DNA of 61,795 nucleotides, the filler included, from Hausera hauseri (taxonomy: Eukaryota), in NCBI GenBank assembly GCA_046269625.1. It is 10 parts of 10 records of this genome, joined end to end, with 100 filler letters (N's around TTAATTAATTAA, not from the genome) between each part and the next. Parts side by side here need not be neighbours in the genome. Positions count along the whole stretch, not along the records: positions 1 to 11,267 come from JBJURY010113320.1; 9 more parts are not named here. One strand, 5' to 3'. Of the stretch, positions 1-52,808 are shown piece after piece. Position 1 is the stretch's first letter. The number at the start of each line of letters is the position of its first letter. A model generated the notes under the pieces. It made no database searches, had not been told where the DNA came from, and worked only from the letters and a program-made list of their open reading frames with translations. Both the position numbers and the translations under genes were made by a program.

Positions 1-643
1 ACTGTCCTCTTAACTATATAGATTTCAAGTAGTGAATTTAATATCTTAGTGTAGTCTAATCGTTCTTAAGGATCGAAGAAAAACTATAGAAGAAATTAAG
101 TCTATTTAATAGAAAATATAACTTTTACCAAAAATTTTCGATACAACACTTCGATCGTTCACCACAGATTGATAATAACCAATAGTTCGGAATTTTCGCT
201 AATTTCGATACTAGAATGACGATTGTCTCTGGTTCCACTGCTTCGTTTAACTGCGACTGTATGAATTCCTTTCGGTAACTTTGTCGGACTTATCCTTCGA
301 TTTTCAACTCCAAAATTGTTCTGCTCTATTCTGAACCCACTCGCTATTTATACTTTCGCTTACGACGATTACGTCATTTTTATCGATTAAATTCACTTAT
401 TATCGGTTTTGTGTAATAATTTTGATTTTCCGATAATAATCAACTTTCATAGGTGTTTGTAAATTATTCTAATCTTGCTAATTCCATTTTGATTAGTAAA
501 TAACTGCTGATTAATAAATAACTATTATAATATACAATTCTAATGCGTACAGCTACGTAACAAAATAACTATTATAATCGTAGGATTCTAATATGTACAT
601 CTACGTAACACATTTTTACAATCTTTCTGTCATTTCTACAACA
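1..643 (-). repeat. 3' LTR of element A1 (distal end not defined)
   Basis: Minus strand starts TGTTGTAG right after a purine tract; TATA-like GTATAAATA at about 345-352; no 5' LTR present for comparison. Confidence 0.6.
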
Positions 644-655
644 ATTCTCCTCCCT
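644..655 (-). promoter_or_regulatory. Polypurine tract of element A1
   Basis: AGGGAGGAGAAT on minus strand directly before TGTTG. Confidence 0.65.
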
Positions 656-749
656 GAACGGCACTCTCGGATGTGCCCATTGCGTCAGAAGAGGTGCCGC
701 GCAAACGGTTCCTTCGTCCGCGTAGGTCCGCTTCCGAGTCTGATTCATC

Positions 750-1166
750 TCGCAGATATCACGGGTCGAAGGGGTATGACGTAGCTTCCGCTCTACATAC
801 TGGGCAGGTCGTTTTCCCGTTTTTCAAGATCCAGTATTAGTACCGACAGTATTTGTGGGTGCAATCCTTATTATCCAATACCACAAATCCTTGGAATAGA
901 TTTACATCGCAAACGGGGCATTCCTCTTTTTCGTTTGTGTCTATGTCTACAAGGTTTTTGTCCACCTCAATGTGTTCAAATACGAGTCCCTTTCTATCTT
1001 TGTATAAATATCTATATAATCGTTTTTGTTTAGGGTCTATAGAGCTTTTCTTGGGGTCATCTGACACGGTAACCAATGTCCATTCAACGATTTCTTGTTT
1101 ATCCAAGTCGGCTATTCCGGTTCTCTTGTATTGTCTCTTAAGTTGCACTCGAACTTGGGTATCCAC
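750..1166 (-). pseudogene. C-terminal RING-finger (C3HC4-like) segment of the A1 3' accessory ORF
   Basis: CPVC...CTHKYCRY*YWILKNGKTTCPVCR; last Cys pair continues in the same frame past a premature stop at 837-839. Confidence 0.75.
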
Positions 1167-2723
1167 TGGGATAGTTGATTGGTTCCTTTTTGCGACTGGA
1201 ATATCGGGTTTTGCTCTTTCTTCATTGATGGGTATAAGACTGCTAGTTGACGGTTTTATTTATTCAACTTGGTTCTTACTGGTCTTACTTTTCTTTTTAC
1301 TAATATATTCAAGGGAGGTAGTTTTCATCTTTTGTCCTCTCGGTAGTTTTCCAATATTCAGCTTTGGTCCTTCCATTGTCTTTTTAGGAAATAATCCAAT
1401 CTCAGTTTGGGTCTGACCGATTGATGGTTTTTGCTGATTTGCTGGACGTTGCGACTGGGTTGTTTTGAACTGTCACTTGGAAACTGTTATGTCCTTGGGA
1501 TTCAATTTGTCTATATATTGGATATTTACTAAATCCTTTTCGAAATTTTTGAATAAAGATTTTTGGATTGTTGTCGGACATTATTTTCTGTCTGGGTTCT
1601 CTTGGTTTCCACTCGTGTTCCCATCGTAATGAGATGTAAACATCTCTTATAAGTCGTGTTCGTTGACTTTCTGCCATTAACTTTGGACATCTGAATTGTT
1701 CGCCATTCATGGCTTCTAACAACATTTTGAACTGCGATTCACGTGATGCTGAAGGAAGTAAACATCCCCTTTTCCTCATTAGGGTGTTTTCTACTCGGTT
1801 TACAACCGTTGGATTGCGACTTAGTTCTCGAATCCCTTCTATATATTCCTGTCTAATTCCTAGCCTTTCTAGCATTTCGTGTACTCTGAATCCGGTTACG
1901 ACGAATCCGTATAAGCGATGGCTTATGTCTTCTTGAATTCCTAAAAATCTTTACCCTTTTCAAGTTGTAGTTTTGTGATTCCGGTAATGTCGGCAAATGT
2001 ATCCTTTATTTTAATTCAAGGTGCGATTATTTTGTTTATTATTTCCTCTCCGTTTATACTTCGGATGGAGACTTCGATTGGGGTGTATCATCCATCATCC
2101 ATTTTTCCATAATTTACGGCTAAGATTCGAATATTCCGGCCGTCAGGAACTAGTCTGTAAGATTCTCTACTTTGTTAAATCTCATCTTCCGAGGGCTTCT
2201 GCATGCATAACAGGGGTGGTAATGGTCTCATTATTTCAGTTCACAAGGTTAATTCGAACATTAGTTTGGTCGGAAGTTCGGCGACTCTGAATTATAATGC
2301 ATAGTCCATGAGACTATGACAACACAGCTCGTATGTACTAAATTTACACTGTTGATCTCTGTGTATTTCAGGATTGTCTTACGATTCTGTACTGAATTTC
2401 TCCATCAGCGACATGTATGTATAATTGCTGATACGTTGGTTCATACGGAATCATATCTCTCAAAAGGTATGCTCGTGCATCCTTCGGACTTCACGTCGCG
2501 TATAATCGAATTAGTCGATTGTCCTCTAGACCCCATTTCAATCCATTCGGTATTCTGCTTTCTTGATCGATTTCTGCATAAGTTTTGTTTTTTAGATTTT
2601 CTTCAATTTTGGGATATAAGCTTTTGGTTGTTGGTTTGAGAACTGTTACGCGTTGCTGCAGGAAGTCATCGATATCGTAACTGAAACTGTGTGCTGGTTC
2701 TTCGGCTTTTCGGCCATATTCTG
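1167..2723 (-). pseudogene. A1 3' accessory ORF of unknown function (fragments 2491-2745 and 1402-1875), probably expressed by splicing
   Basis: Co-oriented ORF pieces starting at a TTTTATTTTAG acceptor; start is homologous to the region after 40244 in relative A2. Confidence 0.5.
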
Positions 2724-2894
2724 CTAAAATAAAAATAAAGGTCAATCCTAAGACAGATCATCGTTTTCAAACAAAACATTTTCTCTGTCTGATGACAGGA
2801 TAACCCGATCTGTAATTGTCAGGTTATGCTATCATAAAGTTTGTTTTGGTACCCTTTTTCCCGTTTATCCCTCTGTTGATTTGTACGTCACTTA

Positions 2895-4118
2895 TTACAG
2901 TTTTTTGGAAACTAAGAAAATCGTCGCTGTTAATATGATAAGAACGAAAATTGACAAACTTATTATAGCTATCATCGGTAAATTGTTCGTTTTAATCAAT
3001 TTTTCCGTGGTGATTGCATTTCGAGTTCTCATTTCTTTATATTGCATTACTTGCACCTCGTCGCTTAAGGTTCGAACCGTTAGGGTTTTGGACCTCCTAC
3101 CCTCTGCGGTAACTTGTACTATATAATCATTTTGTGGTCGTAGAGCTCTACACTCGGTTCCTTGACCATTTTTCCTTAAGATCACAATTTGGTTGGTATA
3201 CAAAGTACGACATATAACCTTAATTTTGTAGTCGAGTGCTTCTTCGACGTAAAATACAATTTTATCAGATCGCACCAAAATCTTAACGGGTATGTCTTCC
3301 AATTCCTTTTTGGTCAATTTACTTGTCGGGACGATGTTGGTAGTGAGAGTCGTAGTTGGAAAAGTAGATGGTTTTCTCGTAGATTTTGGGAACGGTAGTT
3401 CCCATATTACGTCCTTGGGGCGGTATCCTCTCAAGTAAATATTCGGCTCTTTTGGGTAAGTATTATACAGATCGAATTGTAATTAGTAGTTGTATCCTAA
3501 CGGCAACTTACCACGCGCAGTGAGCCGTCGGCGTGCAATATAGCAATATTCTGGGATGGGAGTTGAAGCATTTAATGGTATAAATCTATTTTGGTTATGA
3601 TTCGAATACATTGGTTTTTGAAGTCTTTAGAAATTTCTACAATGTTGAAATCTAAGAGTCTTTTAAATGGGTCGGTGTTTTGCGATATCTTGTCCGTCTT
3701 GTTTTGATTAGCATCGTTACGTTGATGCATTCTAATTTCGTACTCAGTAATTATATGGACTTGGGCTCCAGGCAGATTATAGAACACTTGGGATTTGTAT
3801 TTGTAGGTTAATTCAAAATCGCAACATTTTCGATTGGCGCCATACGGAAAGTCACATATCTTCATTGCGGAGCTATATTGGTCTACAATGATTATTTGAA
3901 ATGTGACGTGGTCCTTAACAGACTCGCATTTCTTGAACCATGCGCATGGTTTATTCCAGTCCATATTGTAGACTCTAAGTGACTGCAAATTTTGCATATC
4001 CGTACGTCTTTCTGCATATTGTTGCTTTTCAGTTAAAGTTATTGATCTTATCTTCGGTATGTATGAAGCGATTAATGACGGCAAGAACTATTCATACATA
4101 TGATTTCGGCTTTGTCAT
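2895..4118 (-). pseudogene. Second membrane protein of A1: signal peptide, Cys-containing ectodomain, Thr-rich stalk, FN3-like domain, C-terminal TM helix
   Basis: MTKPKSYV*IVLAV-LIASYIP leader; TFPTTTLTT stalk; FN3-like LRPQNDYIVQVTA; TM MIAIISLSIFVLIILTATIFLV followed by SKKL. Confidence 0.65.
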
Positions 4119-4149
4119 TATTGATGACGTTTTCTTTTCTTCCTCGGTT

Positions 4150-7100
4150 CGACTCAAGGTCTTTTGACTTGAATGCAGGTTATAGCGTTTATTGGGCCTT
4201 ATTTCCGTTTTAATCATTCTTTGGATTGATACTACTTCCGTGCCGTTTTATTAATGTAAACGGTAGTTGGTGCGGCTCTGATGACTTCGTAGGGTCCTCT
4301 GCCCGTTCGAGTGAGTTTCAGAGATATACCCGTCTGCTACGGGGTAGTGTACATAAATCCAATTTCTTTGTTCTAGGTCGTGTTGTTTAGCTTTCTTGTC
4401 GTATTGCTTTTTAAATTGTCCTTGGTATTCTTTGGATAACTCCTTGGCTATTTCCCAACATTGCTGTAGTCTCCTCTGTAGTACTTCGACAAAGTTTTTC
4501 TCTAGATCTTCTGTGTTCGCTATATACGGTATCATTCCTAAATCTGTGGGCAGAGCAGCTTCCCTGCCATACATCATAAAAATGGAGTGAAACCTGTTGC
4601 AGGATGCGGTGTAGTGTTTATGGCGAATTGCGTGCCTTCTAAAAATTCATCCCAGTCCTTTTGGTCCTTCGCAACTTCTGTTAATAAGATTCGTATAACT
4701 GTTGCGTTTATTCGTTCGACTATTCCGTTACATCGCGGATGGTAAGTCATTGAGGTTAATCGTTCAATTTCAACTATTTTGGTAATCCTTTCGAATAATT
4801 CACTCGTAAAGTTTCTTCCTCGATCTGTCAAAATTTGTTCCAGGGGTCCGTATCTACAGATAATTTTTGTTACCACGGTTTCTGCTAAAGTCTCGGCCTT
4901 TTGGTCCATTAGAGCCATTAGTTCAACAAAATGGGTTAACCGATCTATGCATGTCAGAATGTATCTGTTGTTTTTATGAGTTGTAGGCAACGGTCCTATG
5001 ATATCCATGGATAATTGCTTGCATCGGCCTGTCTGGCCCGTGTATTGGTTTAAGTTCCGGAATGTAGTTTTTCACCTTCCTCAATTTGGTTGCGCATACT
5101 TCGCAAGCGTTTACCCAATTCTTCACATCGATGTACACGCTCGGCCAGTTATACTTATTGAATATTCTTTCTAATGTCTTCTTCCACGACATGTGTCCCG
5201 CTAAATACGAGTCATGTTTGGCCATTAATACGTCTGTACGCAATCCCTTTGCTATGACTACTAATTTCCGTCTTTTTCGTCCATAATACAGTATGTTTTT
5301 ATGCTTCGTGTCTCCTGCTATGCAGTATTTGCGACCGTGTCTTTGGCATTGCCTCGTTTTCGACAAATTCGATGATCTGTTGTATAACCTTGTCCTTCTT
5401 TTGTTCAACCGAATTTTTAATTACTTTATACAGTGTGAGGGCTCGCTGTCTATCCATTAGCTCTTCGAGATGAGCTTTTTTCATTACCGTGATCGCGCTT
5501 TTTTTAGTTTTAAGCCTTGACAGTGCGTCGGCGTCGACATGTTTACTTCCTGGTTTGTACTGAAATTCAATATTGTACCGTGAGATTTCTTCGATCCATC
5601 TGTTAAGTCTGCACGTTGGGTTATCTGCTCTGCCTTTCAAGGTAGTAACTTCTTTGTGATCTGTAACAATTATAATCTTCTGTTCGTAGACGTATATGTT
5701 AAAATGTCGTAGAGCTTCTTCCACAGCCAACGTTTCTAACTCCGTAACCGAATATTTTTTTTCGGCTTTCTTTAGAGAGCATCCTCCGTATGCGATCGGA
5801 TGTTCCAAATCTTCATCTTCTCGTTTCTGAGCTAACTCTTACCCAATATCTTCTTTACTTGCATCCATCTAAATTATAAATGGTAAGTTAAAATCAGGAT
5901 ATCTTAAAACAGGTTCACTAATCAAGATTTTTTTCCTTTCGTCGAAAGCCCTTTGCTCGAGGTCGGTCAATTTCCATTTTCCTTTTTAAGCAATCGATAT
6001 AGATGCGGATTTATTTTTGAATTATCTGGCACATAAGTGGCATAGTATTCACATAAGTCTAACCAATTTCTTAACTCCTGATTTTGAGGTTCCTTACAAT
6101 CCGATATTTTACTTAGCAGTGATCTGTCAGGTTTGGACCCTCCTTTTCCGACTATATGTCCAAGATAAGATACTGCTTTCTGAGCCCATTTACATTTGGG
6201 GTTTAACTTCAATGCGGATTGTTCTATCCTCATGAGCTTATCTTAAATGTCCTTTAAATGTTCTCCTTCTGTCTTTGATGCAATCATTACATTGTCCAAA
6301 TACGCGAACGCGTGTTCCAGTCCCATTAACATCTTGTTCATCATTCGAGTAAAAGTGACTGGTCCAGTGATTATCCCGAATGGCATGACATTAAATTCGT
6401 ATACACCGTCATGCGTTTTAAATGCAGTTTTGTATCGATCTTCCTCAGTCTCTACCTGTCAGTATCCAGATTACAGGTCGAGTGTGGAAAGTCTATCTAG
6501 GACTTCTTTTACTGATGGTAACGGGAAAGAATCTTTCATAAATGTATTTAGCGCTCGATAATCGATACAAAATCGATGCTTTGTAGTACCTTTCTTGACC
6601 ATAAGTATAGGTGAATACCAAGATCTATAGCTTGGTCTAATTATGTCAGCCTTTAGCATACATTCAACTTCTTTTGTTATCTCAGGCCTTAAAGAGTGTG
6701 TGGGGGATATTTCGGCATCTTTTGATCCTCTAAGTCTTTCATCATTGGAACCTGACTTTTTCTTAAGTGGAATTGTTAGTCTCAAGGCTTTGGCTCTGCC
6801 AATGTCCTCTTCGTCTCTAGCGACGACCGAGCTATATTGACAAAGTAGTTCGTAAAATCGACAGTATGCTTCTGCTGAAAATTTAGTTTCGACGTGAGGT
6901 GGAAATTCGACACATTTGTAAAGTTTTTCTTCAATAGTTATTGACGATATTCTATACGTATAACCAAAAGTGGTATTGGCATACAGTTTGATCGGAGTGG
7001 GTGCATTATTCGCTATTCTAACGGGCACATGGTCCGTCGATACTCTTGTTAATACGTTACTGAGTACGATGTTTGGATTTAACGATTCCTTTGGTTCAAA

Positions 7101-7630
7101 ATACACTGGCTGGTCGTCATCTTGACGTATCTGACATATATTAATACCTCGGTTCTCAGTGGTATGTTCTGGTCCACTGGAATCCATACTTCTCCGAATT
7201 GCCTATATTTTGTGATTTTAACCCCTTTTATCGGACCGAGCTTTATTAATTGCCCTGCGTGGAAGTCTATAGCTATATTAGGTAATTTCCAGAACAGATC
7301 ACATCCTAATACTACATCATTTGTTATCTGTTCCATTACTGAGAATTCGTGGTGGAAAGATTGTCTCATTATATGGACTTCTGGTCTCCATCGGAATTTA
7401 CTTTTCGGCCATTGTCCAAAAGCTCCGACACTTTCTGGGTCTGTTGCTGGAGGTGGATATATTTTTTTGTGTAAGCGCTGCGGTATTGAATTATACTTTT
7501 TCAGTGATATTTCAGATCCAGTGTCTATTAATGCGTACACCTCCCAATCTTCCAACTGAATTTTTGCAAAGGGCCTACCTTCGATTATCGTACCATGGTT
7601 GGTGCTATCTTTGGACGTCGGACGGTTCAC
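4150..7630 (-). pseudogene. pol: Gypsy pol of A1 (protease, dUTPase-like spacer, RT, RNase H, integrase), frameshifted
   Basis: ALIDTGSEIS; FCIDYRALN; YLDN (decayed YLDD) near 6290; YSVTELETLAV and TDHK; HHCC motif HDSYLAGH...CEVC; DIIGP/TDRGRNF/GIVERIN; GPY motif RGPYEVI. Confidence 0.95.
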
Positions 7631-8160
7631 ACCTTGTAACCGTTGATAGTAACTTCGGTCGTTCCGTCTGGCTGATCAATTAGTTGTCTTAATTCGCCAA
7701 TTGGGTACAATTCATTACCTGTGCTATATATGTTTTCCGTTTCCTGACTTCTAATTGGCGGGTGGGTTTCTTGGTTTCGAAAATTCTGCGCTTCACGATC
7801 TCTCGAAAATGTTGATCGTATTTCGTTTGGTCTGGGTATTCTAGGTGAATAAGTTATATCGTAATCGTCGACTACTGAACGACGATGTGGAGCAGACGTT
7901 CTTTTCGTTTTGTGCATTTTGCGTAATACACCGTAGTGCTTTGTTTCTTCATAGGGATCCTCGAGGTTAAACGGTTCTCTATAGATACCCGTTTGGTATG
8001 AACACAGATTGTTTCTCAGTCCTCATAAATAGGTGCAGGCGGTGGAAATATTGGCAATGGAGGTTTAATAACGGAATAATTTTTGTGTCTATTCATCCTG
8101 GAGACGGCTCGTCATCGTCAGGGTTGTTCCTTCACGTCTTTACTCTTGTGAACTTGTGTT
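7627..8160 (-). pseudogene. Pro-rich linker between glycoprotein TM and protease, with late-domain-like motifs
   Basis: KPPLPIFPPPAPIY at about 8025-8065; YSPRIP; ELYPIGELRQL at 7681-7713; homologous motifs in ORF 52008-52769. Confidence 0.55.
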
Positions 8161-8165
8161 AGTAA

Positions 8166-10045
8166 TTAAATGTGCCTCCTTTTACGTTTCCGATTATGAT
8201 AACCAACATGACGCTCCACGTCCGCTTTCCATCCATTTTCTTTATAAGCCTTTAAGAATTTACCGAAGGGTGTGACAATAGCAGTTAAAATCTTACATGA
8301 GAATCCTGTCAAGGTGAAAATCTCGTATCCATTTATGATCGCTTGAATTATCGCTTTAACCAGCTGGATCAAGAAATAGATTACTAGAAATACTGTCGCG
8401 GCTTGTCCGAATATCAGAAATCTTCCCCAAATTTTATACAATATTTCTGTTGTTATTCTTTGATAGTAGTTGACACCTAGTAATGATTCCCATTTTGTTT
8501 GATAACGCGAATCTTCTAGTATTGTGTGTATTGTTCTGTTTAATTCATGTGTGCGTTGGCGTGTGAAAGCTAGAAATTATCTTAATGCCTTTACTTCCTT
8601 CGGTCGGTAAATACCTTTTGCGGCAGTGTTCTGGAACTTATCATCGGTTATTCCTTTTATTAGGTTCGTTCTCGTTAACTTGGTGGGTGGAGCAATTATA
8701 CCACCGTTTGGTAAACTTACCCAATCGGTTTCACTACGTCTAAATATTGGTTCGCCTAGGCTGGTCTTTAAGTCTCAAAATCGTTGGTTGGGTAGAGTTC
8801 GCCAGCAATACTCTAGTGATCGGTGTTACTAATCTTGGTATGTCCTGATATATTATTGGAAGTTCTTGTATACATCTCTTTTCTTCCACGTTAATAGGTA
8901 CATCCTTCTCATATTCATAGGTCAGAACTCCGCTCACTAGGCCAAAAACGCCTTCCTTCATTGGAATTATTGGTGATGCGAGCTCGGGATTGGCATATAT
9001 CAAAGCTAGTTTGGTTCTCATGACTTCTAAGTCTAATTTGCAGTCGTTTGTTATCATTTTGTGATATAACTCAGCTATTCCAGGCTGCCATTTGTAATAA
9101 AAATAGTCGCTGTTTTTCAGATAATCCTCAATCCGAGTAGCTTGAGTCTCTAGCTTAAATGTACTGGTTTTTATTTCAGTCTCGGCTACAAAGAACGCTT
9201 CGTAATTAGTGGCATACATTGCTACGTCACATCTGGTAAGTACGTCTTTACGAACTTTAATCCGTGGGCGTCGGAAATTAATATGGTGGGTGTAGGCTGT
9301 TCCGCTACAACCCCTCACGTTTTTGAATTTGTATTTGTATTACTTACGCAGCGTTTTCCTGTCGTTCCGTTAAACGTAAGTTCTTTAATTTTAATAAAAT
9401 TGCAATCGGCCTTGGCTGGAAGTTCCCAAATTACTACTGAACTTCTAAAACAGGTGCTGTCTTGGATATGGCAGTTGGTTTTCCGTATAGAGCTTAGTAA
9501 CGCTATGGAACATCACTTTTTCTGTGCGCATTTCAGTTTCGTAGAAATCCACAACTACTATGTTCGACTCTAATCCCCTTCCGGTATCATATTCTGCGCC
9601 GCTAGTGTCCAGTATGCATATCTAGTCGTCCTGCTGTTACTTTATACACTCTGATTATTTTTCCTTCTTGTATATCTAGTTCCATGCCATCCCATTTTAA
9701 CCTACCAGTTTCTCTAGCTTGTTTACAGTGTAGGCGTTCTAAGCTCATCAGAATTGGTGGGTTCGTTGGTTTAATTATAGACGAGTGTCCGAGTATTAGT
9801 CCACAATGGAAAATGCTGCGAGATCGTCACAACATATACTCTTCCGTCTAATGCGATTAATTCGCGCTGTTGATACAGTAGTAACTTTTCTCTTTTGTTT
9901 CTAACTTGTGAGGTCTCGCGTCTTCGCACATTTCTAGATCCATTAATGAATATCTTTGGCCCAGTTTGAATTTTTCGCAGTCGTATATCGTAACTGCCCC
10001 CATTTGTCTTATTAACATCATCACGGTCAAAAAATTAATTGACCG
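8166..10045 (-). pseudogene. env: Class III-type viral fusion glycoprotein (chuvirus G / herpes gB-like env)
   Basis: Signal peptide then IYDC; SIFHCGLILGHSSII...CKQARETG; YATNY; NDCKLDLEVMRTKLAL..ANP; RCIQELPI...TPITRVL; C-terminal FGQAATVFLVIYFLIQLVKAIIQAIINGY TM block, all typical of chuvirus-like G. Confidence 0.8.
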
Positions 10046-11245
10046 GTATGACGTGTTTCCTCTATTATTTTCGGTTAATTTCCGCAACATGTCTTTGACT
10101 CGGCAACTGTCAAAAAGGGCCTATGTCGATGTTTCTCCTCTTTTTCAAATAATTCTGACCAATTTACTTCTGACAGCTTTCCGCGCTAAACTAGTGGCTT
10201 TGTTATATTCATTTTCTCGAGCTGGATTTGTTTTAATGGCCAGATACAGTAGTACATTTCTTAACTCTTCTATGGTATTCTCTACCATAATTTTTTCGAT
10301 CACCGATTCATCGCTTAGGGTGCTTCTCGATAATTTACAGCGAAAGTTTTTCATTGTTCTGGCTGCACTTAATATAGATTTTTCTTTTCGACTAATATTT
10401 CGTCACACAGACTAGAGTGGTTTATTATGCGTATCAAATTTTTCATAAGTTCATTCAGCTCCTCGTTTTCTGCACTAAAGGTTGGTATGGACATTTGCCT
10501 CAAATCTCTAATTAAATCCCAGTTAAAATCAGTCTCTTCTTGTGCCTTTCGCGGTCTATCAACAGGACGCTTCTGTTTCGCTATAATTGGTACGGTCTCG
10601 CCAGACGGCACTAGATTCTTATCGTATTGTTCTTTGTTTTTGTCCGTTTGCAAGTCCTCAAAGTACATTGTCACATCTTGAACTCCCACGATTCGTCCTA
10701 CACTAATCTGTTTTAGCCTTCCTTGTGGCTTCTTCTTTTGTCTCCTCAATGGCGATCGTTACTATTATTCGATTCGTTTCACCTGGGATAATTCCGACGT
10801 CTATCAATTGTTCCAGTTCGTCTAATATTCTACCTCTAAAGTAAAGTCTATAGCCCAGTTCGCTTGCCCAATCATTACTCATTAGCCACTGTACCACATC
10901 TCTTACGAAAGAGCGCGTAGTTAACTCTTGCTCTTTTTCGTCCATCCAGTCCGATGATATTTTTACTTTAATTGCCTCTTCGGGTTTGGTCCTTAAAACT
11001 TTAGCATATTCCTTTATTAGAAGTTTCGGCGCGGCACTATAGATTGTACCTTCACTGGATAATTTAGTCAGAGTAGGAACTAGTTGTCTCAACTGATTTT
11101 CTGTAAGATTTACATTAATTAACTTAATTAAATCTTTCTCAGTTTGCTCTGAGTCCAGAAGCATTTCCACATTGAATCTCTGATTCGACGGGCATATCTC
11201 CGTTTCGTACAATCGTACGGGGGTTTTCGGATTTTCCTCAACCAT
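10046..11245 (-). pseudogene. N-terminal ORF(s) of A1 with a ubiquitin-like domain (10751-10975) and a possible degenerate capsid-like segment
   Basis: IKVKIS...VRDVVQWL...YRLYFRGRILDELEQLIDVGI...RIIVTI follows the ubiquitin beta-grasp pattern; IPTFSAENEELNELM weakly resembles a Ty3 CA start; 10145-10354 is in frame with the glycoprotein signal. Confidence 0.55.
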
Positions 11246-11267
11246 TGCGTCTAAATATGCATCCCAT

Positions 11268-11825: not shown

Positions 11826-12134
11826 TGGAGATCCAAAGCAATTAGAAAACACAGCAAGACCTCACCTTCTTGAAGGAGCAAAGATAAAAACGAGGTTCCT
11901 TAAAGTATTTTTTTTTATCCTATGTCCTGGCTAACATGAGCCCCTTTCAGACTTTGAATCTGAGCCCGAGAAGCCTTTTCCAGCACTGGTGACATGTGTG
12001 AACTGACCGAGACAGAATGGAGTGTTTGAAGCAGATTCACTGATACACCTCTGAACCACATATGATGGTAGTCACAGAGCTGAGATGGTGGGTATGTGTG
12101 AGGGCGAGCCAGCGCTCTGGCTCTTGTTGATTTG

Positions 12135-15100
12135 ATAAAATGATGTCAGAATCAGGTTTCGGTTAAGCTAAAATTTCGACTGTTTTAAGCTTATCGCGGA
12201 GTTTTTCGAACTGGTTAACAAGTTCTGATGTCCAATATATGAGCTTTTTATTCGGCCCTGCTCCTAGTTGAGTGAAAGGAGCATTTAACTGGCTACAGTG
12301 TGAGATGTATTTATGGACAAAATGTAAAGTCCCAAGGAAACTACGCATGTCAGTAGTGGTTTTTGGTATCTCGATGTTTCATAGATAGTGGATTCTATCA
12401 GGCTGTGAACTGTGATTGTCAGTTGTGATGACATGGCTAAAGAAATTCACCTTTTTCTGGAAGAAGGAACACTTAAAAAAGTTTACTTGCAAATTGCACT
12501 TGTGCAAGCTTTGGAAAACTAGTCTGAGATGTTCTTTATGTTGTTTGGGCAATGCGACTAGTATGTCATCAATGTACGGATATACAAATGGCAAGCCTGA
12601 AAGAACTGAATCAATGTGCCGTTGGAAAGTTTGTGCAGCGTTTTCTAAACCGAATGGCATGAATGCGTATTCGAAAAGACCCAAAGGTGTTATGATGGTC
12701 GTTTTGGGATGTTTTATGGTGTTACCGGTATTTGGTGGTAGGCTTTTTTAAGATCTATGTTTGAATAAATCTTAGTTTTGTGCAATGAATGTAATATGTC
12801 CTTAATCAAAGGTAGAGGATAAGCGTCCATGGTAGTGACATTATTTAGTTGGCGATAATCGCCGCATGGGCGGAATGTGTCATATTTTTTCGGGATGACG
12901 TGAAGTGGTGATGCCCACGGTGATTTTGACCGTTTTATTATGCCAGCTTGTTTGATTGCAGAGAATTCCGCTTGGACTGCCTGTCGACGCCGTGGTAAAA
13001 GTGGGCGGGGTTTTTGCCTAACGGGCCTAGGATTTTCTGTGATGATATGATGAAGCGTCGTGTTAGCTGGTCGAAATGCTGGGTCTTTTTTATTGCGTGA
13101 AAACAAGACTTGGTTAAATATTGTTGCATTTCCGGGCTAAATGTAGTAAAGGCTGTTGTTATTATAGCAGTGGACAGATTGGATTTAGTGTCAGAAACGC
13201 TAGAAATTGAGTCGCCTAAATTGTCCTTGTCAATGCCTTTTGTTCTTCTATTACTGGACTGAAACAAATACGTTGGACTATTTATATTTGTATTAATGAC
13301 GTTCTTATTTGCGTCGGCTGATGGTTCTTTTAGTATCGATTTTATAGGCCAGGTAGGTTGCGTGATTTGTTGGTTATTTGTAGAGGTAGGTTTTGTGGAA
13401 CTGCTTTTGATGATCCGACGTTGTTTACAATCGACAAGGAGGTTGTAGAAAGATAAGAAATCAGATCCAAATATTAGAGATTGTGCATCGGCAACGATGA
13501 ATGTCCAATTGAAAATGTCGGAAAATGGTGGTAAAGTGAATGAAACCTTGGACGTGCCAAAAATGTGTAAAGTTTGGCCGTTAGCTGTGTATAATTTATT
13601 GTTAGATGGTGAGATGAATGGTGTTTTGATAGATGGTGGTAACAAAGAAACGGCAGTCCCAGAGTCAATTAGGAAGTTGATGGGTTGATTGGGTTTTGAC
13701 GTTAAGGAGGCTTTTAATGTGAAAACAGCGTAGATATGGCTATTAGATTGAAGGCGTTTACCTGTACAAGTATGTGCTGAAACATCTGGCGGCTTTGTCA
13801 ATTTTTTGGATAGTAGGATTTGGGGAGTCGGGAGAATTACGATGGAACTGGTTAAGTCGACTGGAAAACGTGCAACGGTTGATGCAGTTTCGGGCTTTAT
13901 TGCTGAACCTATTATAGTAAATACAAACGATATCGGATTTTTGAAAAGCTGGTGTAAAGAATTTACACCCTAAGCAACATTTTTTGGAATGATCCTTGAA
14001 TTTAGTGTGATTATAGCACCCCATATGTCGAGTAGGGGACCTAGCAGATCTCAAATTTTGCGATGAATCACGGCTATGATTGGGTGTGAATCGACCTCGT
14101 CGCGGTATGGATAAATTGCCCAGTTTCGAAGTTAAAGCAGAAATGGCTTGGTGTACTGCCGTGTTTTCAGCCCGAAAAGCGCTTATTTGGTTATTCAGCG
14201 CTAAGATTTCAGTGTTACATGGTGTCAAAGGTGGTTGTAATGTGGCTGCGATGATAGGAGTATAGTGTGCATCTAACATTTCATAGCTTTTATCAACCAA
14301 TTGTGCTAACTTTTCTAGCGTAGCGATGTCTTCAACGATGGTTAGTAAAGCGTGTATTTCTTTTGGTAACAATTGGAGGAAATATATACGCAATAAGTCG
14401 GCACTGTTTGTCTGGTTTATTCCTAACTTGATTAAGTGGGTTAAAGATTTTTGTAAAAACTCTGAGGGTTTCTGATTTCTTGTTGAATTATCATTAAAAT
14501 ATTTTTGGATAACGTTATCCAGAGAAGGCTCATTGAGTTTAAAAACGGCTTTAGATAGTGTCTCGTATGGATCTATGGTTTGGAAGATTTTGGAAAGATT
14601 TGGGAGCAGTGATTTAATAGTGGCTGGCAAGAGTATTAATAGACTATTTGCTTTGAAAAAAGGATCAGTAATGTTATTTGATTTTAGCCACTGTGCATGG
14701 AATTCTAGCCATGTACGACTGGAATGTTGTCTATCTGTAAAATAGTCGACACAAGGGAAATTGTCCAAAGAGGATGTTTCAGGTAGAACAAAAGGGGCTG
14801 CTTTAGAGGAAAGTTTATGGTAGGAATATCGGTGAGTTCCTGAGGTTCGTTTAATGCAGATTTGGTGTCGGAGCCACCGAATAGACGTAGACATAAAGTT
14901 ATTATTAGTGGTGAAGGTGGGGATAAAAGGATGATATTAGATCGGAATAATGAAGATGATATCCGTTTATGCTTAGTGTGTAGCCTTTTAAGTTAATGCG
15001 ATGAGCCAAATCTTAAAACAAATCTGCTACTGTTGCTTTAGTGTGTGCGGTGTGTGTGAATGTTTATTTTGAAGGAAAAAAAAATAGGGAAAAAGGTGAG

Positions 15101-15255
15101 TGCCATGTCAGGGGCATAGTGCGCTACCGGGAACACGATTGCGCCAAAACCACAGGTGCTGAGATTCGGGTAGTGTTAACGGTGGGTCAAACGCCGGAAC
15201 TGCCACTTTATAATTTTCACCTGCTGGCCTGGACGCACTGGTCTTTAGACGCATT
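12135..15255 (-). mobile_element. Gypsy family B copy 1 (leader, gag 13805-14894, PR, RT; truncated before RNase H)
   Basis: Gag with CYNH...CCLGC...CINRC motifs; FLIDSGTAVS; SPWASPLH, PCGDYRQLN, YIDD. Confidence 0.92.
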
Positions 15256-16030
15256 GTAAAAACGTATTTTTCTTCGGAAGTTTGACGTATTTGGTATATT
15301 GTATTATTTTTAATGACGAACAGAAAACAAGTTAAATATTGGTCTAATTCAGAGTCTTGTCCAGACAAAGTTGAATAAATATCGACCAAGTAAATAAAAT
15401 CGTCAAAATCGATGATTTGGTTATCGCGAGAAATTACTAGAATGCGACTTATCAAGTCTTGACAACACAACACCGGGGTTTTCGACCAACATTATGACGC
15501 GATCTGAACCGCAAATAATATCGTGTACGTTCATTTTGTAAGGGAAAAACTCCATCGTCAAAATGGGAATGTCATCCCGTAATTCAGTGTTTAAAACGTT
15601 TTCATTGTATATATTGGAATTTTCGTTGATATTAAACTCAACAATATTATTGGAAATTCTAATAGAAGTCGGAAAATTACCGCTAATTATTTCCTTTTGT
15701 AGAAGTGTAAATTTTGAAGTGTTTGGGTAAGTGGTCATTGGAAAATCCAAAAATATGATGTTAACACATTGGAAAAATGGTGAGAGTTGGTAACAGAAAA
15801 TGTGTGTAAGTATTCAATCAGTTTTATACAAAAACTAAATCTCTGCCAAGATGTTAAGTCGTTTCTGTAAACTACAAAATCTTTTAAATGCCTAATAAAT
15901 TTACTGTGTTCATAATAAGTGAACAATGCATAATAAAGGGAAATAGGAAATTCACTGACCTTAAACTGTATCGGCGTATCATTAAATCTGGTAATTCCAA
16001 AGCGTCTGTGAGAGTACGACAAAGATTTTT
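15256..16030 (-). pseudogene. Intronless fragment of an unidentified protein gene, fused between Sec7 fragment and Gypsy leader
   Basis: Overlapping ORF pieces 15108-15473, 15421-15750, 15735-16022; duplicated at about 18850-19620. Confidence 0.45.
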
Positions 16031-16034
16031 TTGA

Positions 16035-16200
16035 AATTTTGCTGATGACACAAAATCCTTTCGGAAAAAGTCAAACTGATCCACGTATGCATACATGACC
16101 TCGATATTATACTTGTTATTTTCACCAAGAAAATCTCCAATGGCCGTTTTTTCAAGTCGTTCGTCTTTGTATAAAAATTCCGCAATGTCATCCGATAAGT
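16035..16200 (-). pseudogene. Sec7 domain fragment of a BIG1/BIG2-type (ARFGEF) Arf GEF
   Basis: DIAEFLYKDERLEKTAIGDFLGENNKYNIEVMYAYVDQFDF..KDFVS. Confidence 0.85.
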
Positions 16201-16399
16201 CAGATTTTGAGGACGCTGTCGGAAGATTGTGAATCGTCGAGTACAATGACCTTGATATCAATGTAATGTAATTCAACTATTCTCGTTTGACTTTTGGAGA
16301 CGTCGGTTATTTTCGTCATTCGTGCGTTCAGTTCACAGCTAACTAAAATATTCTGAGACTTGTTCACTTGTAAACTGAAAGTAAAATTCTTTTTCCCAT

Positions 16400-17845
16400 C
16401 CAGTCTTTATTGTAGTATTCATTTATATGTTTTCTGATAGCATGTCGCTTATACATTACCACTGATCCAATGTATCTGTAATCTTTGGTCAGGTGATTTA
16501 TGAATTGGAAAAAGTTGTCGAGGTATTTGATAAAAGTAAAATAACACTAAAAATTTTTTTGTTCGACTCCAGCATCCCGTGAGTTTATCATTGTCTTCAT
16601 TATCGCTGTCATTTAAACCATTTTCTTTAATCAACAATTCCTGTTTCACATTCAATTGCAAATCATGGATCCTTACTGGAACAGTGTGACATGACTCTTC
16701 AGTAATAGTTGGTGACATTCTTGGCTTGATGTTAGATTTATTGATTGTCTTACTCGGTACAGTGCTATTAGATCGATTGTTGAATGGTCTATTAGAAGGC
16801 TTAGTCGAAAAATTGATGTTCGCAACCGGTTCGTAAGAACTGCCTACTGACTCCGTTTTCGGTGTAACAGAACGCATCATGCCTTCTTTCAGTTGGAAGC
16901 CTGCCAAACTCATTGATTTGGTTAACATGTAATGCTGAAGATCGTATATGCCAGACACGGACATGGATATATTTCGTTGATCGGTATCTTTTTGACTATC
17001 ATCATGTCTGTTATTTCAGGATCTTCGCAGAATAGAAAATAGTCCCCAGATGTTAGCACAAGATAATGTTTGTTTGGCAGCGGCTTTCCATAATTTTCAC
17101 GAGTACTTTCAATATGCCGGATTTTTCTTTTGATTTTGGCAAATAATCTTTCTTCTTGAATCATTTCCTCTTGCAATGTCGCAGTCATTTTCCGATTAAT
17201 CAAGAATGCTCCTCTCGACACAAATTTACTTTTGATTTTAAGAGCCAACACTACTTGAAAAAGGACTTAGTCGTGAATACTTTGCGTTGTAAAATCAAAA
17301 GCATGAAACACAAAATATCTCCCCAAAAGTCATTATTCATACTGGGACGATATAATACGTCAAATTTCGAGACCATGTCATGCCATTTGTGCATTGGATT
17401 TCGATGAGTTTGATCAGCCAACAGTAATTACGATTATTCAGTGCATTGAGATAAACACATCCTACTAGATGAAGGCCACATTTGATGAATATAACGGTGT
17501 AATTGTAGAATAGGATTATGTTCCATGATGATATAATATACTTCCGCTTGTTTTGCAACATTTGAAATCCGATCCAGAAGTAAACGGTACTTAAAATCAT
17601 GTATCCCAATGAAAATATTGTTGGTTTAATAATTCCGAGAACAAATACGGCTGTCAGGCAAAACCAGTAAAATTGATAAAAAATAAAGTATTTTATATAT
17701 TCAACGAGTGATGATTTTTCACAGATAAAATCCTTCTCTTCAATATAGGGCATATCATTGACTAAGGTTGGAATGTTTCGTGCACCTTTGTAGTCAAATG
17801 ATTGTTTTTCAATACGAAATACGTGGTACTGAAAATGCTTTGTTC
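16400..17845 (-). pseudogene. PIEZO: Intronless internal fragment of a Piezo mechanosensitive channel
   Basis: FYWFCLTAVFVLG...IFSLGY...WNIILFYNYTVIFIK...CWLIKL; DILCFMLLILQRKVF; SRGA; SGDYFLF. Confidence 0.88.
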
Positions 17846-18088: not shown

Positions 18089-19620
18089 GTGTCTGACATA
18101 TCCGATCTTCAGTATTACATGTTAAACAAATCAATGAGTTTGGCAGGCTTCAAACTGGAAGATGGCATGATGCGTTCTGTTACGCCGAAAGTGGAGTCAG
18201 TAGACAGTTCTTACGAACCGGTTGCGAACATCAATTTTCCGATTGAGACTTCTAATAGACCATTCGACAGTCGATCTAATAGCACTGTACCGAGTAAGAC
18301 AATCAATAAATCCAACATCAAGCCAAGAATGTGACCAAATATCATGAGGAGTTATATCACACTGTTCCAGCAAGGACCCATGATTTGAAATTGAATGTGA
18401 AATAGGAATTGTTGATTAAAGAAAATAGCTTAAATGGCAGCGATAATGAAGACGATGATAAACTCACGGGATGCTGGAGTCAAATGAAAAAATTTTTACA
18501 GTGTTATTTTACTTTTATCAAATATCTCGACAACTTTTTCCACTTCATAAATCACCTGACCAAAGATTACAGATACATGGNNNNNNNNNNCATAAACGAC
18601 ATGTTATCAGAAAACATATAACTGAATACTGCAATAAAGACCGGATGGGAAAAAGAATTTTACTTTCAGTCTACAAGTGAACAAGTCTCAGAATATTTTA
18701 GTTATTTGCACAAAGACGAACGACTTGACAAAACGGACATCGGAAATTTTCTTGGTGAAAATAATAAGTATAATATCGAGGTCATGTATGCATACGTAAA
18801 TTAGTTTGACTTTTCCCGAAAGGATTTTGTGTCCTCATCAGCAAAATTTCAAAAAAATCTTCGTCGCACCCTCACAGACGCTTTGGAATTACCAGATTTA
18901 ATGATATGCCAATACAGTTTAAGGTCAGTGAATTTCCTATTTCCCTTTATTATGCATTCGTTTACTTATTATGAACACAATAAATTTATTAGGCATTTAA
19001 AAAATTTTGTAGTTTACAGAAACGATCTACCATCTTGGCTGAAATTTAGTTTGGCATAAAATCGATTGAATACTTACATACATTTTTCTGTTACCAACTC
19101 TCACCATTTTCCCAATGTGTTAACATCATATTTTTGGATTTTCCAATGAACAGTTATCCAAACATTTCAAAATTTACACTTCTACAGAAGAAAATAATTA
19201 GAGGTAATTTTCCGAATTCTATAAAAATTTCGAATAATATTGTTGACTTTAATATCAACGAAAATTCCAATATATACAATAAAAACGTTTTAAACACCAA
19301 ATTATGGGATGACATTCCCATTTTGACGATGGAGTTTTTCCCTTACAAAATGAACGTACATGATATTATTTGCGATTCAGATCGCGTCATAATGTTGGTC
19401 GAAAACCCCGGTATTGTTTTGTCGAAAGACTTGATAAGTCGCTTTCTGATAATTTCTCGCGATAACCAAGTCATAGATTTTGACGATTTTATTTACTTGG
19501 TCGATATTTATTTAACTTTGGACAAGACTCTGAATTAAACCAATATTCAACTTGTTTTCTGTTCGTCATTAAAAATTATATAACATACCAAATGTGTCAA
19601 ACTTCAGAAGAAGAATACGC
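18089..19620 (+). pseudogene. Inverted duplicate of the Piezo-Sec7-unknown chimera (Sec7 junction has an internal deletion)
   Basis: Colinear reverse-complement similarity to 15256-16958. Confidence 0.88.
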
Positions 19621-22600
19621 TTTTACAATGCGTCTAAAGGCCAGTGCGTCCCGGCCAGCAGGTGAAAATTATAGAGTGGCAGTTCCGGCGTTTGACCCAC
19701 CGTTAATACGACCCGAATCTCACAGCACCTGTGGTTTTGTCGCAATCGTGTCCCCGGTAGCGCACTATACCCCTGACATGACACTCACCTTTTTCCCTAT
19801 TTTTCTTTTCCTTCAAAATAAACATATGCACACATCACACACACGCTAAGGCAACAATAGCAGATTTGTTTTTAGATTTGGCTCATAGCATTAACTTAAA
19901 AAGATTCACACTAAGCATAAACGGATACTACCTTCATTATTCCGATCTAATATCATCCTTTTTATCCCCACCTTCACCACTAATAATAACTTTATGTCCA
20001 CGCCTATTCGGTGGCTCCGATACCAAATCTGCATTAAATGAACCTCAGGAATTCACCGATATTCCCACCATACACGTTCTTCTAAAGCAGTCGCCTTTAG
20101 TTCTACCTGCAGCATCCTCTTTGGTCAATTTCCATTGTGATGACTATTTTACAGATAAACAACATTCCAGTCGTACATGGCTAGAATTTTATGTACAGTG
20201 GCTAAAATTAAATAACATTACTGATCCTTTCTTCAAAGCAAGTAGTCTATTAATACTCTTGCCAGCCAGTATTAAATCACTGCTCCCAAATCTCTCCGAA
20301 ATCTTCCAAACCGTAGACCCTTACAAAACATTATTCAACGCCATCCTTAAACTCGCCGAGCCTTCAATGGATAACATTATAAAGAAATATTTCAATGACA
20401 ACACCATAGGCACTAAAACCCTCTGAATTTTGACAAACATCTTTAACCCAATTAAACAAGTTAGGGGTAAACCAGACAAACAATGCCTACTTACTGCGTA
20501 GATATTTCCTTCAATCATTACCGAAAGAAATACGCGCTTTACTAACTGTAGATGAAGATATCGCTACGTTAAAAAAGTTAGCACAACTGGCTCATAAAAT
20601 ATTCAATACACACCATACTCCTATTGTCGCAGCCACATTACAACCACCTTCGACACCACCTAACGCTGAAATCTAAGCACTGAATAACCAAATAAACGCT
20701 CTCCGGGCTGAAAACACTTCAATGCACCAAGCCATTTCTGCTTTAACTTCTAAATTGGACAATTTATCTATGCCGCGACGAGGTCGATTCACACCCAATC
20801 ATAGCCGTGCTTTATCGCAAAATTCGAGATCCGCTAGGTCCCCTACTCGACCTATGGTGTGCTATTATCACACTAAATTCAAAGACCAATCCAACAAATG
20901 TTGCTTGGGGTGTAAATGCTTTACACCAACTTTTCAAAAATCCGACATCGTTTGTATTTACCATAATAGGTTCAGCAATAAAGCCCGAAACTGCATCAAC
21001 GGTTTCACGTTTTCCAGTCGACTTAACTAATTCCATCGTAATTCTCCAAATTCCTCAAATCCTACTATCCAAAAAAACTGACAAAGCCGCCAGATGTTTC
21101 GGCACATACTGGCACAAGCAAACGTCTTCATTCTAATAGCCGTACCTAGGCTTTTTTCACATTAAAAGCCTCCTTAACATCCAAACCCAATCAACCAATC
21201 AACTTTCTCATTGACTTAGGGACTGCTGTTTCTTTGTTACCACCATCCATCAAAACACCATCCATATCACCATCTAACACTAAATTCTACACAGCTAACG
21301 GCCAAGCTTTACGCATTTTCGGCACCTCCAAAGTTTCATTCACTTTACTACCATTCTCCGGAATTTTCAATTGGACATTCATCGTTGCCGACACAAAATC
21401 TCCAATACTTGGGTCTGATTTCTTATCCTTCTACAACCTCCTTGTAGATTGTAGACAACGTCAGATCATTAAAAGCAGTTTAACAAAACCAACCGATCAT
21501 GCAGCCTATCTCAACTAAAAAATCAATATTGAAAAAACCATTAACCAATGCGTATAAAAACCTTACTGATAAAAACAATATAAACAATCCTACTTTTCTG
21601 TTGAAGTCCGATTTAGGCGGCCTGATTTCTACCATTTTCCACAATAAGTCCGATCAAACCTTTACTACGCTTAGCTAAGAAATGCAACAATATTTAGTCA
21701 AGTCTTGTTTTCATACAATTAAAAAAGACCCAGAATTTCGAACGGCTAACACGACGTTTCATCATATCATCACAGAAAATCTTAGGCCTGTTAGGTAGAA
21801 ACTCCGCCCACTTTCACCACGCCGTCGACAGGCAGTCAAAACGGAATTCTATGCACTCGAGCAAGATGGCATCATAAAACGGTCAAAATCACCTTGGGCA
21901 TCAGCACTTCACGTCGTCCCGAAAAAAGATAGCACATTCCGCCCATGCGGCGATTATCGCCAATAAAATAACGTCACTACCATGGACGCTTATCCTCTAC
22001 CTTTGATTAAGGATATATTACATTCCTTACACAAGACAACAATCTATTCGACCATAGATCTGGGAAAAGCCTACGACCAAATTCCGGTAGCACCAAAAGA
22101 CATAAAAAAACGGCCATTATAACATCTTTTGGTCTTTTCGAATACGTATTCATGCCGTTAGGTTTAAAAAACGCAGCACAAACTTTCCAACGGCACATTT
22201 ATTCAGTTCTTTCAGGTTTGCCAGTTGTATATCCATACATTGATGACATACTAGTCGCATCGGCATCATTTAAACAACACGAAGAACATCTCACACTAGT
22301 TTTCCAACGCTTGCACAACCACAATTTGAAAGTGAACTTTTCTAAGTGTTTCTTCTTTCAAAAAGAGGTCAATTTCCTTGGCCACGTCATCACACCCGAC
22401 GGTCACAGTCCACAGCCTGATAGAATCCATCGGGTACGAAACATTGAGCTACCAAAAACCACTACTGATATGCGCAGTTTCCTCGGGACTTTACATTTTG
22501 TACATATATACGTCCCACACTGTAGCTAGTTAACTGTTCCTTTCGCTCAACTAGGAGCAGAGCCGAAGAAAAAGCTCATATATTGGACGCCAGAACTTAT

Positions 22601-23685
22601 TAACCAGTTCGATGAACTCTGCGACAAGCTCAAAAAAGTCGACATTTTAGCCTACACAAAACCTGATGCTGACCTCATTTTAACAACCGACACATCAACT
22701 ACAGCAGTAGCAGCGGTTCTTCATCAAATATCTCAAGGTATAAATAAACCCTTAGAATTTTTTTCTCGCAAGCTGCAGCCACAAGAACGCCGTTATTCCA
22801 CCTTCGATAGAGAACTCCTGGCAATTGTTTTAACTCTGAAACATTTTTCACATTCGCTTATCGCTCGTTCCTTCACTATCCAAACGGACCACAAACCTCT
22901 TGTTCACGTAATGAACATGAAACAACCATCACTGCGACAAGAATGCCGTATATTATATTTGTCAACATTCAGCTTTAAAATTCGCCATATTTCTGGCACA
23001 GACAATTTAATAGCCGATTTCTTATCACGGTCAGTTGAAGCAATTAGCGTCACACCAATATTTTCAAAGGACCAGTTAATCCAAAATCTACCTTCCAATG
23101 AAATTCTGCAACAATACAAATCCGTGCAAATCACCGATGGAATAGCCATGGATACTTCGACACCTGGACAACATTTGGCAATTTTGACACCTCCTCTCCA
23201 ACGAACTGCATTTCAACATGTTTATTCTTTGCATCACCCAGGTTACAAGGCTACATTCTGCATTCTCAAACACCACGTAACATGGCCATCGATGAGGTTT
23301 GATGTACAGAGTTGGGTTAGGCAATGCGTAACTTGCCAAAAGTTCAAAGTAGCTAAATATCTTAAACCACCATTATTCCATTTCCCGTGTTCATCCCGTT
23401 TGAGTCAGTTCACATAGATATCGTTGGCCTATTACCTTCCGATAATGGTCACCAATTTATTTTAACAATGATGGACTGCGCGTCTCGTTGACCTGAAGCC
23501 ATCCCTTTTCGCTCCATCAATATGGACTCCATTGCAGACGCATTCATAAGGTTTTGGATTAGTTGGTTCGGTTTACCTAGCTATATAATTACAGACCAAG
23601 CTCCTCAATTTGAGTCGAATCTATTCAAATCTTTATTTAATCGACTGGGCATAAATCACATACACACAACGCCATATCACCCCCA
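19621..23685 (+). mobile_element. Gypsy family B copy 2 (leader, gag, PR, RT, RNase H, partial INT), decayed
   Basis: Inverted homolog of copy 1; YIDD; YSTFDRELL; HHPG...CVTC; ITDQAPQFES; TTPYHP. Confidence 0.92.
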
Positions 23686-27745: not shown

Positions 27746-27954
27746 CTTCAGTAGGCAGAAATGTCCACTCTACCGCACTTCTCTGATTGGTCCGTCGGCC
27801 ACTTTTCCTCACGTAATAGGCTATTCTGAACATTTCACAAAAAATTTCAGATGANNNNNNNNNNNNNNNNNNNNNNNNNNNNNNNNNNNNNNNNNNNNTT
27901 AATTAATTAANNNNNNNNNNNNNNNNNNNNNNNNNNNNNNNNNNNNNNNNNNNN

Positions 27955-49540: not shown

Positions 49541-49544
49541 CTGA

Positions 49545-51899: not shown

Positions 51900-52808
51900 G
51901 CAGTAAACAAGACCATCACGCTTACTTCTTTTAAGGTATTCCACGTACTGTTAATCTCTATTTGTAGAATTCAAAGTTTGTTCCAGCTGATATAATACCA
52001 AATTCCTTCACCACTGAGCCTGCAACAAGAACATCCTCTTTCGATATACCATGTCTTCTAATAAAGATAAAATGTCCATACTAACTACTACTTCATCTAC
52101 TAATTCTTTCATTATCCTGAATTTGGCTTGTACTATTTCTCCATAAATTAGTACGTCAGTTTCCCAATAGGCTACTAAAGTTTGATAATTTCCAAATACA
52201 TTGGTTCCACATGGTAATATTTCTGGAATAGTCAATTCGCATTTTTTATCCTCAGGTATCAGTGATTCTTTTATAACTGATATCGAGGCGCCTGTATCTA
52301 CCAATGCTTTGAATATCAAGCCACCGACTTTAATTAGAGTTCTTGGTCTTTTATCAATTTTTCTGCGTATAGTTGATTTTAAATGAGGGTCAAAAATTCC
52401 TTCTGTGTTAGTTTCTTCATCTATCATCGAAATAGTAAAGTTATTCGTTCCAAACACTACTACATTAGTAGGGTTGTTTTCGTCCATTTTTTCTCGATGT
52501 TCTTTTAACTGTTTCATTGGATATAATCTCGGACTATCAGGTTTGATCACGGATAGTCTGGCATACTTTTCACGTTGTTCATAAACATCGTGGATTGAGA
52601 CTTCATCGTAAGTCTTTTGAGTAGTTGATAAACTTTGTTTATTTTGCAGAATCTGGTTTAACTCAGAATTTATGAGTGGCATATTAGTTAATGGTGATGC
52701 TGGTCTTCTTGGACTGTATAACATCACATCTGACTTATAATTAGGTGGAGCAGTTGGATAATCTGGCAATGGTTTTAATATTGATTGGTATGGTGGTTGA
52801 AAGTTCGG
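51900..52808 (-). mobile_element. Fragment A3, relative of A1: late-domain linker fused in frame to protease (ORF 52008-52769)
   Basis: PTAPPNY, YSPRRP, LYPMKQL, then RP...ALVDTGASIS; colinear with 7079-8070. Confidence 0.75.

Follow-up and report, generated by a model that had tools for sequence, protein, structure and literature searches.

The stretch of DNA analysed here (the window, positions 1-61795, 61,795 nucleotides of Hausera hauseri) is made of ten segments joined by N44-TTAATTAATTAA-N44 spacers, so that neighbours across a spacer are not genomic neighbours. Segment 1 (1-11267, minus strand) carries a decayed, Burro-like Ty3/gypsy retroelement, copy A1, in which an N-terminal piece, a signal-like segment, a glycoprotein (Env) of Pfam family PF24664 (Monjiviricetes fusion), a transmembrane (TM) helix, a linker, a protease, a reverse transcriptase (RT), an RNase H and an integrase follow one another. 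The N-terminal piece (10706..11266) probably contains a ubiquitin-like domain, as it aligns by blastp to the ubiquitin-like region of the relatives described below (E 1e-6 to 1e-3), with Atlas scores below 0.9. The chuvirus-type glycoprotein ectodomain at 8433..10036, a region that includes the internal signal-like segment (~9995-10036), is preserved in pieces, two of which (E 3e-11 and 1e-15) score 42 and 57 bits against a curated PF24664 cut-off of 27. Then come the TM helix at approximately 8334..8390 (19-residue Kyte-Doolittle mean 2.31), a second, weaker hydrophobic stretch at 8265..8321 (mean 1.5), which we infer to be membrane-proximal rather than a second pass, and the Env tail or linker at 7600..8260, which runs from the membrane-proximal stretch to a retroviral-type aspartic protease (PF00077; 7200..7590, with LIDTGS at 7514-7531). 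RT, RNase H and integrase, likewise decayed, occupy 4235..7199 and were identified through domain matches and collinear relatives; both their order after the protease and the presence of gypsy-type domains are those of Ty3/gypsy elements, and the closest solved relative of the family alignment is the Ty3 Gag-Pol. A Gag capsid and a zinc knuckle are absent from segment 1, Gag lying beyond the segment end or having been lost, and a search for long terminal repeats gave no direct repeat of at least 30 nt within 1-11267, where the segment ends. A second signal-plus-TM membrane protein, which has no Pfam match, follows the integrase (2895-4100, minus strand), and a Cys/His pattern at the end of a further ORF (780-920, minus strand) is one we take to resemble a RING finger; a Pfam scan of a piece of that ORF gave no match.

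The tail of A1 contains ELYPIGELRQL (7681..7713, minus strand), a long-form YPx3L motif of the ALIX type that lies about 61 codons upstream of the protease aspartate and is conserved in the family. The initial annotation had placed it between glycoprotein TM and protease, and the coordinates together with the PF24664 and PF00077 matches confirm this. The linker is spread over three frames, of which one holds the TM and the proline-rich stretch PPLPIFPPPAPIY (8025..8063, minus strand), separated from each other by three stops, another holds YSPRIP (7834..7851, minus strand) and ELYPIGEL, and the last holds the protease. The proline-rich stretch had also been read as late-domain-like; it is present, but it matches neither canonical P(T/S)AP nor PPxY and lies in another frame than ELYPIGELRQL. 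Stops and frameshifts break the A1 copy, so the protein cannot be made from it. The decay is probably real, because contigs of sequencing run X1, possibly the source sample, are identical to A1 (0 differences) over 7400-7852 and 7823-8182. The run search for the element gave two runs with matches, with no RNA run among those listed.

A further copy of this region, A3 (52011..52808, minus strand), is one open frame in which motif scans and a domain match locate, in order, PTAPPNY (52737-52757), where P(T/S)AP and PPxY overlap, YSPRRP (52701-52718), LYPMKQL (52506-52526) and a protease with LVDTGA (52287-52304). The best protein matches of A3 all belong to the Gag-Env-Pol family described below, and any A3 Env lies beyond the segment end. 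PTAPPNY had been missed in the initial annotation, and A1 has neither P(T/S)AP nor PPxY. The positional conservation then proposed between A1 and A3 holds for the order of the motifs but not for their spacing, YSPR and LYP being 47 codons apart in A1 and 64 in A3. YSPRxP did not turn out to be a motif of the family either, being common to A1 and A3 only and found in 0 of 24 other protease-fused tails and in no stand-alone tail from the best 150 of 1463 hits (see below). It may be conserved in this organism's own subfamilies, since contig depth peaks over it in both copies. These peaks span 7807-7917 in A1 and 52687-52781 in A3, where PTAPPNY is also covered, with low flanks; the summed depths are to be read as a pattern only, not as copy numbers. 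The codon-position count applies to the contigs placed on A3: of the 24 differences listed there (30% threshold), 19 affect a third codon position, and PTAPPNY, YSPRRP and LYPMKQL contain none of the 24. Tyrosine motifs of the form P[IV]Y[EDS] recur in A1 and in 3 of 24 tails.

Elsewhere in the window, the end of another family-like integrase is followed by a signal segment, a Cys-rich ectodomain and a TM (38300-39950, plus strand). Env-less Ty3/gypsy copies of another family are found at 12100-16960, 18090-23680, 42500-43520 and 57500-59600, two of them 86-90% alike and in opposite orientation. Decayed copies of what we take to be a protein-primed, Polinton-like family B DNA polymerase occur at 25300-27800, 28000-31500, 34000-36600, 44700-47700 and 53800-56800, and four of these five are about 70% alike. 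Frame pieces at 49500-51300 (minus strand) resemble an ABCA-type transporter, judging from a motif.

A search among long proteins yielded P0002, a single ORF of 3036 aa collinear with segment 1, whose Env retrieved 13 more relatives; the resulting 14 proteins (P0002, P0121-P0133) are single ORFs of 2296-4057 aa. Five new loci were also obtained, four of which reach the tail (L003, L001, L002 and L005), and L003 is again an intact single ORF with Env in frame with Pol. The order in the relatives is Gag (where complete), ubiquitin-like module(s), signal segment, Env, TM, tail, protease(s), RT, RNase H and integrase. Each polyprotein holds one to four protease-like domains, often 2-4, some with an altered catalytic motif, and ankyrin repeats, C2H2 fingers and a weak Bcl-2 match also occur. 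Matches to zf-CCHC or capsid were obtained for P0121, P0124, P0125, P0127, P0130, P0132 and L003, and sub-threshold Pfam matches to the ubiquitin-like module for P0130 (E 4e-5) and P0127. Relatives carry one or two ubiquitin-like domains, which, placed ahead of Env, could add to the tail motif; ubiquitin itself is described as an ESCRT entry signal (accessible text of PMC7923801). In 11 of the 14 relatives and in L003, two hydrophobic segments follow the integrase within the same ORF, and the post-integrase ORF of the window (2895-4100) has no sequence match to them. Querying with a single Env piece of 198 aa gave 0 homologues, and scans of viral_contigs and genome_contigs gave no locus. It had been suggested that the motif tethers Pol to budding vesicles; since Env, tail and Pol form one ORF in the intact relatives, the covalent fusion is the tether and Pol needs no other.

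The tail of L003 has PTAP followed by FYPTNEL, which is the order found in HIV p6, while L001 has HYPQI and L002 is a repeat of P0127. L005 (328-3324, plus strand) is a stand-alone PF24664 glycoprotein of 998 aa with about 300 extra N-terminal residues, and it ends soon after RYPKL in its tail, without a protease. P0131, an animal-type Gag-Env-Pol polyprotein, is deposited in NCBI under a bacterial metagenome-assembled genome, a label that probably reflects contamination. On the Env tree the A1 piece, which covers 47% of the columns, groups with the protease-fused Envs (SH-aLRT 88) with no resolved place inside that group, and the short (YPxL) and long (YPx3L) spacings interleave; the Pol tree comprises the family members that have the required anchors, which 3 of the 14 lack.

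By itself, the A1 copy is weak evidence for a motif: in 3000 shuffles of its linker DNA, [LIMV]YP(x|xxx)[LI] arose in 4.6% and YP(x|xxx)[LI] in 23%. The whole window, read in six frames, contains 8 matches to LYPx(1-3)L. The excess of the motif over chance comes from the relatives. YP is present in the tails of 13 of the 14 and is their most over-represented dipeptide. With the motif masked and the window copies excluded, the tails fall into 11 mutually unalignable groups, treated here as independent tails; 10 of the 11 have YP (2.9 expected), 7 have YP(x|xxx)L (0.38 expected), and 4 have P(T/S)AP or PPxY (0.23 expected). The family-wide comparison of the linker that the initial annotation had called for therefore bears out its view of a conserved motif in a diverged linker, as YPXnL is far above background in Env tails of both fused and stand-alone relatives. 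Out of sample, [LIMV]YP was found in 7 of 11 further protease-fused tails from the best 150 of 1463 hits, against 0.7 expected. When all 27 protease-fused tails are pooled and near-duplicates are kept, YP occurs in 24, YP(x|xxx)[LIV] in 20, YP(x|xxx)L in 14, P(T/S)AP in 3 and PPxY in 4, which leaves 3 without YP and 7 without YP(x|xxx)[LIV]. The [LIV] variants of the pattern were picked after the first 14 tails had been seen, and the shuffle P values ignore shared ancestry.

The position of the motif within the polyprotein was compared in 15 relatives. The part before Env (the Gag side; 11,904 aa) has 0 YP(x|xxx)[LI] and 0 P(T/S)AP, the tails (1,865 aa) have 11 and 2, and the part from the protease to the C-terminus (25,703 aa) has 28 and 3, so that the pattern alone is not diagnostic. 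In the corresponding stretch ahead of the protease, YP(x|xxx)L was found in 0 of 53 non-family Ty3/gypsy proteins. The second membrane protein of the family has a loosely defined late motif in 3 of 11 tails, one of them LYPx3L.

Stand-alone glycoproteins were collected by a HMMER search with the P0002 Env, its tail removed, as query. From the best 150 of 1463 hits, 147 new proteins were examined and 129 reach the TM end; the stand-alone set comprises 112 tails, that is, 119 less 7 (5 shorter than 30 aa, 1 reassigned to the fused tails, 1 chimeric), with a median length of 62 aa and no alignable pair. Among these 112 tails from the best 150 of 1463 hits, YP is present in 68 (24.1 expected) and absent from 44, YPxL is found in 35 (2.0 expected), [LIMV]YPx[LIV] in 44 (0.9 expected), YPx3L in 7 (2.0 expected) and P(T/S)AP in 18 (1.4 expected). 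PPxY is not enriched in the same 112 (5 vs 3.8 expected), and the control patterns are flat in this sample of the best 150 of 1463 hits: YPx2L 2 (2.1 expected), FPxL 0 (1.0), PY 16 (24.4) and non-proline YxxPhi 33 (34.0). Ten stand-alone clusters were looked up, of which two are named chuviruses, with VYPNL and LYPQL in their tails; the other eight are nameless and need not be viruses.

A1 conforms to the sequence pattern of YPXnL motifs, [LI]YPxL or [LI]YPx3L, and the likeness to the HIV-1 p6 ALIX site pointed out in the initial annotation is close: E34, L35, Y36, P37, L41, R42 and L44 of p6 match, and Ile replaces L38. These eight p6 positions are reported as important in an alanine scan (accessible text of PMC2397435). 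The late domains of HIV-1 p6 are PTAP and LYPx3L, and that of EIAV p9 is YPDL (PMC2397435, PMC8402826, PMC7923801, as far as their accessible text goes); the tails described here resemble them in motif sequence, in both spacings, in the pairing with P(T/S)AP or PPxY and in the place just ahead of the protease, and HYPDLDSIKEE of P0124 resembles the EIAV p9 peptide (PMC2397435). The difference is that the known late domains of these sources lie in Gag, matrix or capsid proteins, whereas the motifs predicted here lie on the tail of a fusion glycoprotein. ELYPIGELRQL thus represents a YPXnL motif that is conserved in the tails of chuvirus-type fusogens, and we consider it likely that it binds the host ESCRT adaptor ALIX, in which case the fusogen, not Gag, would recruit the machinery of particle scission.

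Other readings of the motif have to be weighed against ALIX-mediated budding. The motif could be a chance match in a decayed proline-rich linker, as the frequency of single occurrences in shuffles would allow, but the family-wide enrichment with flat control patterns and the third-position bias among A3-related contigs are against it; the enrichment in the tails of relatives and of stand-alone glycoproteins rules it out, and we give it hardly any credence. Aromatic-proline bonds are known retroviral cleavage sites, and Tyr-Pro, which stands 32-75 residues ahead of the catalytic aspartate in the fused members, could accordingly be where a retroviral-type protease frees Pol from the Env tail. 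Yet the motif is equally enriched in stand-alone glycoproteins that have no protease and end a median of 16 residues after it (best 150 of 1463 hits), and the leucine five residues after the tyrosine would fall outside the protease pocket. YP(x|xxx)L is also missing ahead of all 18 later protease domains of the family (plain YP precedes 6 of them, in five cases owing to an integrase-tail motif), and these domains have a different, hydrophobic junction motif, which is also seen between YP and the first protease, where it resembles the later junctions by eye. Because the motif is present in stand-alone glycoproteins without a protease, it is a feature of the glycoprotein tail rather than a cut site; cleavage at this point is largely ruled out and thus very improbable.

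The remaining alternatives accept the motif as a functional signal. YxxPhi is the sorting pattern recognised by adaptor proteins, and the short form YPxL/I/V, which fits it, is the commonest form in the stand-alone tails (53 of 112, best 150 of 1463 hits); the tyrosine could then be an endocytosis or trafficking signal of this kind, or bind another host protein. Against this, YxxPhi without the proline is at its expected frequency (33 vs 34.0; best 150 of 1463 hits), the residue before the tyrosine is mostly L/I/M/V (57 of 73 sites; best 150 of 1463 hits), and the long forms YPIG, YPMK and YPLQ do not fit YxxPhi, so we judge a role of this sort decidedly unlikely. It is somewhat less unlikely, though still improbable, that the motif does bind ALIX and directs Env to multivesicular bodies, where Env is turned over or loaded into exosomes, with no scission of infectious particles. 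A YPX3L motif in the membrane protein PAR1 mediates sorting of this type (accessible text of PMC3341166), and sequence data cannot separate sorting from budding. However, the Gag side has no YPXnL, and P(T/S)AP, which is enriched too, precedes the YP motif in 6 of the 8 tails with both motifs (best 150 of 1463 hits), just as late domains of viruses are arranged in pairs (PMC8402826, accessible text).

If ELYPIGELRQL and its counterparts are indeed ALIX-binding late domains, Gag would be made in the cytosol, the internal signal would send the Env ectodomain into the lumen, and the TM would bring the tail and Pol back to the cytosol, a topology based on hydropathy and on the place of Pol. The residues that follow the TM have a moderately high hydropathy (mean 1.39, maximum 1.69), so this topology is not certain, and a true second pass would place the tail in the lumen. 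Pol would stay covalently bound to Env until the protease cuts the hydrophobic junction between motif and protease, after which the motif would lie close to the new C-terminus of Env, as it does in the stand-alone chuvirus G. There it would recruit ALIX and, in turn, ESCRT-III to the bud neck, with TSG101 where P(T/S)AP is present and NEDD4-type ligases where PPxY is present, roles that are described for both at late domains (PMC8402826, PMC7923801, accessible text). In this way a single captured gene would have brought the element both fusion and budding. Parsimony suggests that the motif arrived with the captured glycoprotein; the alternative is convergence, the tails being unalignable.

The Gag-Env-Pol architecture is already published (PMC6431247, PMC13524379, in their accessible text). 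Burro, or GYPSM1, is a giant Ty3/gypsy element of planarians with one polyprotein that contains a Gag with CCHC knuckles, Ubi2/SUMO-like, BCL2-like and ankyrin modules, and a mononegavirus-like Env in frame between Gag and protease (accessible text of PMC6431247). The relatives reported here have the same modules, a likeness that refers to the published description of the architecture, and that description makes no mention of a tail motif in its accessible part. Unlike Burro as described there, our relatives are 2.3-4.1 kaa long and often have 2-4 protease-like domains and a second membrane protein after the integrase. RING and apoptosis modules are carried by Burro elements, and the RING-like pattern at 780-920 is found here. 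The GAG-ENV-POL errantiviruses with an HSV/gB-type Env, described from Nematoda, Bryozoa and Platyhelminthes, agree in gene order and Env class (PMC13524379, accessible text); that study analyses the ectodomain, and its main text gives 0 hits for 'late domain', 'ALIX' and 'ESCRT'. The chuvirus G and the Anakin Pao elements belong to the same PF24664 family (accessible text of PMC7642597, which has 0 hits for 'late domain', 'budding' and 'cytoplasmic'), but the viral G stands alone and mostly has the short spacing, whereas the fused Env lies ahead of Pol. Toxoplasma GRA14 is likewise a transmembrane protein whose late-domain-like motifs recruit ESCRT, although it is non-viral, unrelated and no fusogen (PMC8700025, accessible text). 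In a sea-louse mononegavirus, according to the accessible part of its description, late motifs are found in ORF I and III and not in G. We found no report of late domains in chuvirus-type Env tails in a search of the running text of mostly freely accessible papers; that literature describes elements of this type, but not the late domain that the sequence predicts in the tail.

To our knowledge, chuviruses have no recognised matrix gene. Their genomes are described as NP-Gly-RdRp (accessible text of PMC7642597), and a predicted late domain in the fusogen tail would be one concrete answer to how chuviruses, and invertebrate retrotransposons that carry an Env, leave the cell. A wider proposition, on which we are evenly balanced, is that self-budding extends to the chuvirus-type class III fusogen family as a whole: late domains for ALIX and TSG101 in the tail would replace the matrix protein apparently missing from chuviruses, the Ty3/gypsy elements that captured such a glycoprotein would have acquired fusion together with ESCRT-dependent budding, and Gag, Env and Pol of Burro-like elements would reach the bud as one membrane-threaded chain. 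If true, the predicted role of the tail would depart from the common pattern, since recruitment of ESCRT is usually the task of Gag or matrix. The motif is also independent sequence evidence that Burro-like elements have been selected to make enveloped particles, and it suggests a reason why retrotransposons have repeatedly captured the chuvirus-type glycoprotein.
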